Origin: a virus
Reading direction: 5' to 3' (one strand)
UHGV virus genome: UHGV-1808101
Length of the DNA stretch: 13,632 bases
Shown here: positions 2,178 to 6,851 of the stretch, piece after piece
Numbering within the stretch: the first letter of the stretch is position 1
Layout: each line of letters begins with the position of its first letter
Notes under the pieces: model-generated
Databases searched by the model: none
What the model was told of the DNA's origin: nothing
Seen by the model: the letters and a program-made list of their open reading frames with translations, nothing else
Translations under genes and position numbers: made by a program

Positions 2178-2798
2178 TTAATGCTGGGGAGTGATTTTTT
2201 TGTTGTCTGTTGGCTGGGTATTTTGTGGCGGCGCTTGCAAAGTGGAAGGCTGTTGCAAAGGTGCGTGGTCTGACTTTAAAGCTGATACCAGCCCGGGAAT
2301 CGCAACTATTACAGCGATAATGACACTAAAAATGGCTAATCGTATAGAAATACCCGACTGAACACCACTAATTGCGGCATTAACCCCTGTTATTTGTCCT
2401 TGAATTCCTTCGAATCTCCCATTAATTGCTTTTATATCGCCAGCAGCGCTATCCATCTTTCCATCGATCTTGGACGATAGAGAGCTTATGGCTGCATTAA
2501 GTGATGCAAATTGGACATTAACGCTTTCACGAGATAGAGCCATGTCAGCCCTAATGGAGGAAGCAATAGACTCCATCTCTGCTTTATTAGCAGCTAAGCG
2601 AGCATCAAGTTCCTCTCTGCTGATCGTTCCCACTTCTTCCTCCGTTTGTGGCGGTTTTATGTAATTATTTTGCACCTTGGTGGGAGAATTATCAAATTCA
2701 GCCTCAAAATCAGAACCGCCAACAACCTTCAACCTCCGGCTTTCAGATATGTTGGTGTCTTGCTTTCCATGATTATTTAAATTACTGTCGTCACTCAT
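2178..2798 (-). CDS. Hypothetical membrane-anchored coiled-coil protein, 206 aa (third gene after cI)
   Basis: ORF with ATG overlapping the upstream stop (ATGA coupling at 2795..2798); hydrophilic N-terminus, Ala/Ser-rich heptad-like central region, one hydrophobic helix LAIFSVIIAVIVAIPGLVSAL, and a Pro/Gln-rich C-terminal tail. Confidence 0.65.
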   Translation of the reverse strand: MSDDSNLNNHGKQDTNISESRRLKVVGGSDFEAEFDNSPTKVQNNYIKPPQTEEEVGTISREELDARLAANKAEMESIASSIRADMALSRESVNVQFASLNAAISSLSSKIDGKMDSAAGDIKAINGRFEGIQGQITGVNAAISGVQSGISIRLAIFSVIIAVIVAIPGLVSALKSDHAPLQQPSTLQAPPQNTQPTDNKKITPQH

Positions 2799-3229
2799 AA
2801 TAGCTCTACGGTGAAAAATGATTCATTTTTATGAAGTTCATTTTTAGGGTCTTCATTATCTTGCAATATCCCTATAACACTATACAGCCCTTTAGCTGGG
2901 ACCCTAATTTCTTTCAATGTTACTATTACCTGTCCGCCAACCCCTGTTTCAAAATGGCTATCTTTCGTATCGATGAAAAGTGAAACTGATTCCGAAGAGC
3001 CGTCAGGGAATTGAATTTCCTCACCTTTTTTTATAATTAGGTGCGCGGGGATTACCATAATACCCAAATTATATCTTGAATTTGGTTTCAACCCGATCAT
3101 ACCAACCCTGAAATCAATTGATAGCCGCGCAGGAAATTCATTGCATGTAAAATTAAGCGTCGGTTGGTTGGGTTCTTCGCTGCTATCAAATGGGGTTATA
3201 AAAGATATTCTTTCTAAATTAAGTGCCAT
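2795..3229 (-). CDS. Hypothetical protein, 144 aa (second gene after cI)
   Basis: Start moved to MALNLERISF (ATG at 3229) because AGGAGA lies 5 nt upstream; the longer track ORF (start 3283) lacks a comparable ribosome-binding site. No motif recognised. Confidence 0.6.
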   Translation of the reverse strand: MALNLERISFITPFDSSEEPNQPTLNFTCNEFPARLSIDFRVGMIGLKPNSRYNLGIMVIPAHLIIKKGEEIQFPDGSSESVSLFIDTKDSHFETGVGGQVIVTLKEIRVPAKGLYSVIGILQDNEDPKNELHKNESFFTVELL

Positions 3230-3299
3230 AAATTCTCCTGCATCGCTGTATGCTCTACGAGCATCTCTGCGACCATCCATCATCCAAACGTCTCTTCAC

Positions 3300-3641
3300 T
3301 CATCCGAAGAAGCAGCAATCCGGGTCAGCACGCACAAGCTCAAGCGCATCAGTCAGCGAAAGTTCAGTACTGTACTGATGCCATTTCATATCCTTCCGCA
3401 TCCAATAGATTTTCCATCTATCCAGAGAACGTATGTACTTGATTCTTGCTGATGGCAGGATGTTTGTTTCACCTGGGTTGCCCTGCCACACGGGGCGCTG
3501 TTCGCCGATATCTATCGTTTGGTCATTGATGCTATAAACAATATCCAGTTCATTGCGGATATGTTCAGGCGGCCTTATGCTTTCAATGAATTGGTGAACT
3601 TCTTTTTTGACCGCTTGATATTCAAGGTCAGTGAACGCCAT
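3300..3641 (-). CDS. Hypothetical protein, 113 aa (first gene after cI, rexA-like position)
   Basis: ATG 10 nt after the cI stop with a GAGGAGGA Shine-Dalgarno overlapping the cI stop codon; no motif recognised. Confidence 0.65.
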   Translation of the reverse strand: MAFTDLEYQAVKKEVHQFIESIRPPEHIRNELDIVYSINDQTIDIGEQRPVWQGNPGETNILPSARIKYIRSLDRWKIYWMRKDMKWHQYSTELSLTDALELVRADPDCCFFG

Positions 3642-4779: not shown

Positions 4780-5076
4780 ATGACACAAACAAGTTACAGC
4801 AAACTATCCCAGCGCGACGTTGATCGCGCAGAAACGGATTTACTCATCAACCTGTCAACGCTTACCCAGCGCGGTCTGGCAAAGATGATTGGCTGTCATG
4901 AATCGAAGATAAGCAGAACGGACTGGAGATTTATTGCTTCGGTCCTGTGTGCTTTCGGAATGGCATCAGACATCAGTCCGATTAGCAGGGCTTTTAAGTA
5001 TGCGCTTGATGGAATCACCAATAAAAAACGCCCGGCGGCAACCGAGCGTTCTGAACAAATCCAGATGGAATTCTGA
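4780..5076 (+). CDS. cII: CII transcriptional activator (lysogeny establishment), 98 aa
   Basis: C-terminal …[19 protein letters not shown] matches recalled lambda CII; helix-turn-helix in the centre; position after cro/nutR. Confidence 0.85.
5022..5048 (-). terminator. OOP-like antisense RNA terminator (tO) inside the cII 3' end
   Basis: Minus strand CGCTCGG-TTGCCG-CCGGGCG 7-bp stem (one G-U pair) followed by TTTTTTATT; same arrangement as lambda oop antisense to cII. Confidence 0.55.
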
Positions 5077-5108
5077 GGGAATTACTGGATCAATCCACAG
5101 GAGTCATT

Positions 5109-5255
5109 ATGACAAAACAACTCAGTCCTTACCAGGACAAAATTCACAAACACATACTACGTGATCGCTTCCTGTCCAGCTTCAAGCAGCCTGGTCGATT
5201 CCGGGCTGGGTTGGAAAAAGTGAAGCTGATGCAGAAGGAGAAAGGTCATGAGTAA
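5109..5255 (+). CDS. Candidate small basic protein, 48 aa, between cII and O
   Basis: AGGAG 6 nt upstream of ATG 5109; [48 protein letters not shown]; stop overlaps the O start. Not in the ORF track; no homolog recalled. Confidence 0.35.
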
Positions 5256-6153
5256 TCTTGCAACCGTAACACATTTAAGGCCTTCACAACGGCCTGTGGA
5301 GCGTCGTGTGGCAGAAGTTGAAGATGGTTATACCCGTCTTGCAAATGCCCTGTATGAAGAGCTTATCGGCGCAGATTTAACGAAAAATCAGAGCAAGGTT
5401 GCCCACGCCATATGCCGTAAAACATACGGCTACGGTAAAAAGATGGATCGCATCTCTGATAGTCAGTTAGCTCAAATTACCAGGCTGCCAAGACAGAAGG
5501 TAAACAAGGCCAAGAATGAGCTTATCGCGATGAAGGTTATCTTTCGCGAAGGCCAGCAAATCGGGCCTAACAAGAACATCGAGGAATGGCAAATCGAAGG
5601 GTGTCACTACTCTGGTGATAATGTCACTGCATTGGTGACAAAAAGTGTCACCAAAACGGTGACAGCGCTGTCACCAAAACAGGGACACACAAAAGAAACT
5701 ATTACAAAAGAAAAAAGAAAAGATTATTCGTCCGAGAATTCTGGCGAATCCTCTGACCAGCCAGAAAACGATCTTTCTGTGGTTAAACCGGATGCTGCAA
5801 TTCAGAGCGGCAGCAAGTGGGGAACAGCAGAAGACCTGACCGCCGCAGAGTGGATGTTTGACATGGTGAAGACCATCGCGCCATCAGCCAGAAAACCGAA
5901 TTTTGCAGGGTGGGCTAACGATATCCGCCTGATGCGTGAACGTGACGGACGTAACCACCGCGACATGTGTGTACTGTTCCGCTGGGCATGCCAGGACAAC
6001 TTCTGGTCCGGTAACGTGCTGAGTCCGGCCAAACTCCGCGACAAGTGGACCCAGCTCGAAATCAACCGTAACAAGCAACAGGCAGGCATGATAGCCAGCA
6101 AACCAAAACTCGACCTGACAAACACTGACTGGATTTACGGGGTGGATTTATGA
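5248..6153 (+). CDS. O: Replication initiator O (origin-binding protein), 301 aa
   Basis: C-terminal ~115 residues ([82 protein letters not shown]…WIYGVDL) match recalled lambda O; the N-terminal DNA-binding half is divergent; iterons lie inside the gene. Confidence 0.9.
5602..5687. repeat. Replication origin iterons: four ~19-bp palindromic repeats (TGTCACCAAAACGGTGACA type)
   Basis: Repeats at 5602, 5622, 5646 and 5669 with ~20-24 bp periodicity, each a TGTCAC…GTGACA palindrome around CAAAAC, followed by an AT-rich tract at 5690..5735; inside O as for ori-lambda. Confidence 0.7.
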
Positions 6154-6851
6154 AAAACATCGCCGCACAGATGGTTAACTTTGACCGTGAGCAGATGCGT
6201 CGGATCGCCAACAACATGCCGGAACAGTACGACGAAAAGCCGCAGGTACAGCAGGTAGCGCAGATCATCAACGGTGTGTTCAGCCAGTTACTGGCAACTT
6301 TCCCGGCGAGCCTGGCTAACCGTGACCAGAATGAACTGAACGAAATCCGCCGCCAGTGGGTTCTGGCTTTCCGGGAAAATGGGATCACCACGATGGAACA
6401 GGTTAACGCTGGAATGCGCGTAGCCCGTCGGCAGAATCGACCATTCCTGCCATCACCCGGGCAGTTTGTTGCCTGGTGCCGGGAAGAAGCATCCGTTACC
6501 GCCGGGCTGCCAAACGCCAGCGAGCTGGTTGATATGGTTTACGAGTATTGCCGGAAGCGTGGCCTGTATCCGGACGCAGAGTCTTATCCATGGAAATCAA
6601 ACGCGCACTACTGGTTGGTTACCAACCTGTACCAGAACATGCGGGCCAATGCGCTGACTGACGCGGAATTACGGCGTAAAGCTGCCGATGAGCTGACCTG
6701 TATGACCGCGCGAATTAACCGTGGTGAGGCGATACCTGAACCAGTAAAACAACTTCCTGTCATGGGCGGTAGACCTTTAAATCGTGCACAGGCTTTGGCG
6801 AAGATCGCAGAAATCAAAGCTAAGTTCGGACTGAAAGGAGCAAGTGTATGA
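6150..6851 (+). CDS. P: Replication protein P (DnaB helicase loader), 233 aa
   Basis: Translation matches recalled lambda P essentially along its whole length ([35 protein letters not shown]…); ATGA overlap with the O stop. Confidence 0.92.
   Translation: MKNIAAQMVNFDREQMRRIANNMPEQYDEKPQVQQVAQIINGVFSQLLATFPASLANRDQNELNEIRRQWVLAFRENGITTMEQVNAGMRVARRQNRPFLPSPGQFVAWCREEASVTAGLPNASELVDMVYEYCRKRGLYPDAESYPWKSNAHYWLVTNLYQNMRANALTDAELRRKAADELTCMTARINRGEAIPEPVKQLPVMGGRPLNRAQALAKIAEIKAKFGLKGASV

Follow-up and report, generated by a model that had tools for sequence, protein, structure and literature searches.

A mosaic lambdoid O gene joining an mEp043-type origin cassette to a lambda-type backbone

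Does the O gene of UHGV virus genome UHGV-1808101 combine the DNA-recognition half and the origin of one lambdoid type with the P-contacting half of another? The window analysed here is the whole 13,632-nucleotide stretch of this viral genome. Its O gene had been described in the initial annotation as having a C-terminal domain and a following P gene of lambda type, together with an N-terminal half and intragenic iterons of another type, consistent with an exchanged origin-specificity module. According to PMC6022878, lambda O contacts DNA through its N-terminal part and P through its C-terminal part, the two being joined by a flexible linker; one O dimer occupies each iteron, the O-some stresses the nearby AT-rich region, and P brings DnaB. 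The work cited there is that of Furth and Yates (1978), Wickner and Zahn (1986) and Tsurimoto and Matsubara (1981).

The O gene, its neighbours and its repeats

The features of the O region are listed below by their positions in the window.

4780-5076: cII, upstream of the DUF2740 ORF and O
5109-5255, + strand: small DUF2740 ORF, 48 aa (P22 ORF48/HK97 gp53 family; Pfam PF10872, E 2e-27)
5248-6153, + strand: O gene, intact ORF for a lambda-O-family replication initiator of 301 aa
5305-5589, + strand: N-terminal Phage_rep_O DNA-binding domain of O, aa 20-114, predicted winged helix (Pfam PF04492, E 7e-38; AlphaFold; Foldseek)
5602-5620: iteron 1, TGTCACTACTCTGGTGATA, codon phase 1, encoding CHYSGD
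5622-5640: iteron 2, TGTCACTGCATTGGTGACA, codon phase 3, encoding VTALVT
5646-5664: iteron 3, TGTCACCAAAACGGTGACA, with perfect 7-bp arms, encoding VTKTVT
5669-5687: iteron 4, TGTCACCAAAACAGGGACA, codon phase 2, encoding SPKQGH
5688-5735: AT-rich, A-strand-biased tract of 48 bp, presumed DNA-unwinding element
5762-5779: palindrome of lambda/21 type, CAGAAAACGATCTTTCTG, right of the AT-rich tract, the same in phage 21 and one base off in lambda (DE3)
5815-6090, + strand: C-terminal helical domain of O, aa 190-281, lambda type, presumed P-binding (sequence identity; AlphaFold)
6150-6851, + strand: P gene (DnaB helicase loader), lambda type (Pfam PF06992 Phage_lambda_P, E 9e-62)

The O protein is a member of the Phage_rep_O family, its PF04492 match scoring 129 bits versus a cutoff of 28.7. 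By its partner gene the locus is of the lambda O type, as had been proposed: a C-terminal domain 98% identical in amino acid sequence to those of lambda and phage 21 (approximately 21% to that of mEp043) adjoins a P protein that is 98.3% identical to both lambda P and phage 21 P, and the two ORFs overlap by 4 nt, the same as in lambda. The N-terminal part is indeed unlike that of lambda (52% identity), and it is approximately 99% (99.3%) identical to the mEp043 type. The DUF2740 ORF overlaps the start of O by 8 nt. An ORF of this family lies upstream of O in mEp043, P22, mEp213 and most of the listed IMG/VR loci with the N-domain type of the window, and it is missing from the region upstream of O in lambda and phage 21. 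It may be a part of the origin-recognition module.

A repeat finder returned four 19-bp inverted repeats of the form TGTCAC-N7-GTGACA within the O gene, whose starts are 20, 24 and 23 bp apart. These are the palindromes of TGTCACC-AAAAC-GGTGACA type that the initial annotation had called non-lambda, and every coordinate given there proved right. When up to two mismatches were allowed, the pattern had four matches in the 13.6-kb window (0.61 expected), all of them in the 86-bp stretch 5602-5687, and none of 200 dinucleotide-preserving shuffles gave four matches. All copies have TGTCAC as the left arm, and the right arm departs from GTGACA by at most one base. The AT-rich tract that had been noticed after the iterons is 27% GC, compared with 49% for the O gene as a whole, and 56% of its top strand is A; its core ACACAAAAGAnACTATTACAAAAGA is kept in the origins of lambda, ES18, mEp043, P22, 3W and mEp213. 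A LexA box over iteron 4 was also considered and rejected by eye, as the spacing of CTGT-N7-ACAG is wrong for LexA.

Several other elements were observed elsewhere in the window. A lambda cIII thermoregulator RNA element is found at 344-402 on the - strand (88.5 bits), and the left end of the window is therefore the cIII region of the pL operon. Three ORFs on the - strand (2178-3641) follow cI directly, where lambda has rexAB; one encodes a DUF3024 protein of 113 aa (3300-3641) with a match to PDC-S43, a defence candidate in PADLOC (E 7e-42), and the other two (2795-3283 and 2178-2798) had no match in Pfam or PADLOC. The PhiR12 phages considered below have a different gene at this rexAB-like position. 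On the + strand, the Rfam families c4-a1b1, isrK and C4 antisense RNA were matched at 8816-9014, directly upstream of an antirepressor gene (9067-9771; ORF6N, P22_AR_C), and the segment 8816-9771 as a whole is a P1/P7-style RNA-controlled antirepressor within a lambdoid nin region. Downstream of the Q antiterminator gene (11217-11735), the + strand has two full-length copies of the STnc100 sRNA family, at 12700-12905 (141 bits) and 13183-13392 (166 bits). Right after Q, an Rfam tRNA match at 11799-11868 (+) scored 32.6 bits, barely over the gathering score, and ARAGORN found no tRNA in the window; the match may be the remnant of a tRNA such as Stx phages carry at this place.

Junctions of the cassette and free combination of modules

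We searched the O gene by megablast against 50,697 phage records. Nucleotides 1-473 of the gene were 99.4-99.8% identical to mEp043, Sf101, SEN22 and vB_EcoP-720R6, a range that also describes the DUF2740 ORF, the N-domain, the four iterons and 33 bp at the start of the AT-rich tract in these phages, whereas nucleotides 428-906 were approximately 98% identical to phage 21, lambda imm21 and many Stx phages. The only records that aligned to the gene from end to end were PhiR12_1, PhiR12_2, PhiR12_2*, PhiR12_4 and PhiR12_5 (99.1%).

Base-by-base comparison allowed both ends of the mEp043-like segment to be placed:

5084-5720, + strand: imported origin-specificity cassette of mEp043/Sf101/SEN22 type, comprising the DUF2740 ORF, the O N-domain, the four iterons and the start of the AT-rich tract (99.4% identity to mEp043)
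5698-5720: crossover interval of 23 bp, ACTATTACAAAAGAAAAAAGAAA, within the AT-rich tract, shared without change by the window, mEp043 and phage 21

Homology to mEp043 begins at 5084 and ceases at 5720, with four mismatches in 637 nt, and the dense differences between the window and phage 21 cease at 5697. The right-hand crossover was placed in 5698-5720 because this interval is identical in all three sequences. On the left, the boundary lies just past the cII stop at 5076, and the imported piece therefore consists of the DUF2740 ORF, the N-domain and the iterons. The flanks of the cassette are 21/lambda/Stx-like; cII forms the left one, and the right one consists of the O C-domain, P and ren. 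Judged from these alignments, the O gene is a natural recombinant, in which a 637-bp cassette of mEp043/Sf101 type sits in a lambda-type backbone. The proposal of an exchanged origin-specificity module was thus borne out, with a crossover that can be narrowed to 23 bp.

The same modules were found in other pairings among sequenced phages:

lambda, 21, 933W: N-domain of lambda type; iterons ATCCCTCAAAACGAGGGA; lambda C-domain and P
ES18 (O is gp59): N-domain of lambda type; iterons of lambda type; ES18-type C-domain and T7-gp4-like primase-helicase gp61
mEp043: N-domain of window type; iterons TGTCAC; ES18-type C-domain and gp61 homologue
window, PhiR12: N-domain of window type; iterons TGTCAC; lambda C-domain and P
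3W: P22-like N-domain; iterons TTTACC...GGTAAA; lambda C-domain and P

For two recognition modules and two recruitment modules, all four possible combinations are represented. The N-domain and the iterons co-segregate across these recombinants, and the partner domain varies freely.

IMG/VR was scanned for the exact 19-mer of iteron 3, which occurred in at least 120 stretches. In 118 of the 120 listed stretches, the 19-mer was in or beside an O gene of the window family, and 117 of them had a match to the window N-domain (62-99% identity); one other stretch starts too near the iteron to contain an N-domain. The remaining two, L013 and L117, carry the 19-mer outside any O gene and were set aside as unrelated occurrences. 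In L117, a GC-rich contig, the match falls among two TGTCACC-N5-GGTGAC palindromes that are approximately 20 bp apart and outside any O gene, an unrelated operator-like site.

Among the listed stretches, the partner was an ES18-type C-domain in at least 64, with the primase-helicase wherever the stretch reached that far; a distant lambda-like C-domain and P (approximately 50% and 42% identity) in about 15; a P22-type C-domain, a DnaB-like helicase or both in about 15-20; and the lambda C-domain and P at 98% in two (L064 and L131). In all partner classes, the iteron array is followed by the block ACACAAAAGA(A/C)ACTATT(A)CAAAAGA, which is also present in lambda, and class-specific divergence begins past this block. 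In some relatives (L016, L028, L046, L075, L087, L093 and P0052), the exact iteron is one place nearer the start of the array, or there are at least five TGTCAC repeats; P0052 is a protein of 318 aa with extra VTK-coding repeats. Such extra-repeat relatives of the window origin type parallel the difference of four versus six iterons between lambda and Stx phages.

The direction of the exchange deserves consideration, since an mEp043-like phage might instead have swapped its ES18-type C-domain and primase-helicase for the lambda C-domain and P. The ES18-type domain is by far the commonest partner of this N-domain and iteron module in the IMG/VR counts, and by this measure its pairing with the lambda partners is derived. 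However, the mEp043-like DNA in the window extends over just 637 bp, and with 21/lambda/Stx-like DNA on both sides of so short a cassette, its import is the more economical account for the genome of the window. We consider the reverse exchange rather unlikely. The two accounts differ solely in which parent is named the backbone, and the function would be the same either way.

Occurrence of the mosaic

The exact O protein of the window was found in at least four independent metagenome samples, in the same neighbourhood (cI-cro-cII-DUF2740-O-P-ren), and about 30 O variants at 97% identity or more were present on more than 250 contigs, all from E. coli where the source names an organism. Among 5426 complete E. 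coli genomes, the whole mosaic O gene was detected in one, the closed genome of SCU-104 (99.2% nucleotide identity), whereas the cassette (5084-5697, at 80% coverage or more) was detected in 169. The mosaic combination is thus uncommon and its parts are common.

The five PhiR12 phages (PV340549-PV340554) and SCU-104 have the same mosaic with the same junction (99.1-99.2% nucleotide identity over the gene), followed by P and ren. The PhiR12 O protein differs from that of the window at three residues, the window carrying L99F (in the predicted wing), V281M and T282I. A protein alignment showed that the M-I variant at 281/282 also occurs in another cluster of O proteins with a lambda C-domain. 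The immunity region of the PhiR12 phages next to this locus is unlike that of the window. The PhiR12 phages have been isolated, their records name MG1655 or E. coli C as the host, and with an O protein only three residues different they offer indirect support, by proxy, for the viability of the mosaic O.

It could be argued that assembly created the mosaic as a chimera, or that the prophage is decaying and its O gene dead, as the window derives from metagenome assemblies and the whole mosaic is so much rarer in complete E. coli genomes than its N-module. However, an identical protein in an identical neighbourhood recurs in independent samples, near-identical variants are found on hundreds of contigs, and the mosaic is present in a closed genome, in two listed IMG/VR contigs and in isolated phages. 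The O ORF is also intact and retains the lambda-like overlap with P. This recurrence makes a chimera or a dead gene very improbable.

Predicted function and relation to known origin types

An AlphaFold model of O, based on a 24-sequence alignment, was of medium confidence (mean pLDDT 64). Its N-domain (aa 26-118; pLDDT 72-90) has helices at 26-41, 46-60, 71-78 and 82-94 and a beta-hairpin at 98-107, and its C-domain (aa 190-281; pLDDT 76-86) is a helical bundle. Residues 122-189 were modelled with low confidence and are predicted to be disordered; the DNA for these residues comprises the iterons, the AT-rich tract and the palindrome at 5762-5779. Foldseek searches against the PDB gave weak matches to the model (best E 0.035), nearly all of which were winged-helix DNA-binding regulators of the MarR, CRP and TrmB kinds, and a sequence search of the PDB matched no solved structure of any O protein. 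The N-domain is thus predicted to be a winged helix. Its predicted recognition helix is the same in all aligned proteins of the TGTCAC type, except for one E-to-D change in one protein, at an overall identity of 55-83%, and it differs from those of the lambda (PVKRCNEAKLE in lambda O), P22/3W and HK97-like types.

It is very probable that the O gene of the window encodes the initiator, and contains the origin, of a lambdoid (Stx/21-like) prophage, and that this natural recombinant works like lambda O and ori-lambda. By homology, dimers of the winged-helix domain would bind the four palindromic iterons within the linker-coding segment of O, and the resulting nucleoprotein complex would put stress on the adjoining AT-rich tract. 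The C-terminal domain would then recruit P, which would deliver the host DnaB. Such an origin is predicted to have TGTCAC-N7-GTGACA specificity and to retain the P-DnaB loading route of lambda. Binding by O, unwinding, dependence on P and non-recognition by lambda O would all be expected from this homology.

The four iteron copies lie in all three codon phases and encode unrelated peptides; therefore, the conserved thing is the DNA palindrome and not the peptide. A reading in which the repeats are a VTK-type peptide repeat of the O linker without DNA function, the true origin being elsewhere, can draw on the V-T-x-x-V-T encoded by each of iterons 2 and 3 and on VTK repeats in the aligned O proteins of relatives, but it is hardly credible given this constraint on the DNA, the inverted symmetry of every copy with its constant left arm and nearly constant right arm, a position, number and spacing equal to those of the lambda iterons base for base, and the predicted disorder of the encoded segment.

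How new is this origin? Its novelty had been overestimated in the initial annotation: the N-domain and the iterons occur at approximately 99% identity in mEp043, Sf101, SEN22 and 720R6, and the whole mosaic occurs at 99.1% in PhiR12. The type is therefore one that has already been sequenced and annotated as O; as for its being an already characterised origin type, we found no paper on its iterons. Our literature search retrieved no binding, unwinding or replication assay and no description of TGTCAC iterons; the Sf101 genome paper likens the replication module to that of mEp043 and says nothing further, and papers on O of Stx phages treat lambda-type iterons. We lean slightly towards the view that the TGTCAC-N7-GTGACA origin and its N-domain form a distinct, experimentally uncharacterised lambdoid specificity class that is orthogonal to ori-lambda and uses the same P-DnaB route. 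If so, with at least four helicase-recruitment partners, the conserved AT-rich tract in the O linker would act as a universal recombination joint, linking the choice of start site to the choice of recruitment partner. An O/ori pair of new specificity that works through lambda P might provide a second, compatible replicon of the lambda type, and it would lend itself to identifying the winged-helix residues of O that recognise the iteron arms. The principle of a modular O is about fifty years old, and the allele has already been deposited as replication protein O. The discovery value of the locus is small; as a natural recombinant it illustrates cleanly how lambda O is built from two modules.

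Lambda has the same gene order cII-O-P-ren (as do 21, 434 and 933W-type Stx phages), and its O protein has the same plan of a Phage_rep_O N-domain, a linker and a P-binding C-domain. Ori-lambda is likewise intragenic, with four palindromic iterons of 18-19 bp at 20/24/23-bp spacing, and it shares the CAAAAC spacer in two of four iterons, the AT-rich tract and the palindrome. In phage 21, the iterons annotated as gpO-binding have these start spacings and occupy the corresponding place in the gene. However, the ori-lambda specificity type (lambda, 21, 434 and 933W) has arms TCCCTC/GAGGGA, versus TGTCAC/GTGACA in the window; as the iterons of lambda and phage 21 are of the ATCCCTCAAAACGAGGGA type, the arms of the window genuinely differ. 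The divergent N-domain and the missing DUF2740 ORF of lambda are further differences. Conversely, the TGTCAC iterons and the N-domain of the mEp043/Sf101/SEN22 module are present in the window, and the ES18-type C-domain of that module and its 626-aa primase-helicase, which resembles ES18 gp61 and stands in place of P, are not.

The window also differs from the remaining types compared. Phi80, with which a comparison had been suggested together with lambda and 21, has iterons of the TTCCCGAAAACGGGAA type (TTCCCG...CGGGAA) and an N-domain that is 27% identical to that of the window. P22 has TTTACC...GGTAAA iterons and a 50% identical N-domain, and mEp213 (HK97-like) has ATTAGC...GCTAAT iterons and a 40% identical one; the window is of neither these types nor that of phi80. 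In phiEt88, the iterons are TGTTACC...GGTAACA and the N-domain is 54% identical.

Phage 82 likewise pairs a non-lambda N-half with a lambda-compatible C-half, and because of this shared pairing the origin of the window may be of the phage 82 type. The phage 82 origin was reportedly described by Moore, Denniston and Blattner in Gene in 1981, perhaps with five repeats. Neighbouring accessions and the annotation notes of HK022 yielded no O or ori sequence of phage 82. Phage 82 was absent among the 13 phage records with the N-domain type of the window, and none of the near-identical proteins listed, whose names are abbreviated, had a phage 82 label.

The principle of joining near the AT-rich tract is seen in other natural phages. 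ES18 gp59 is the reciprocal mosaic of the window O, and the O protein of 3W has a P22-type N-domain with TTTACC iterons on the lambda C-domain and P; these other combinations have their junctions a few bases to either side within the tract. Hybrids of lambda with phi80 and with 82 are said to have given genetic proof in 1978 that the N-half of O is specific for the origin type and the C-half for P. The window O gene exemplifies this two-half design in nature.
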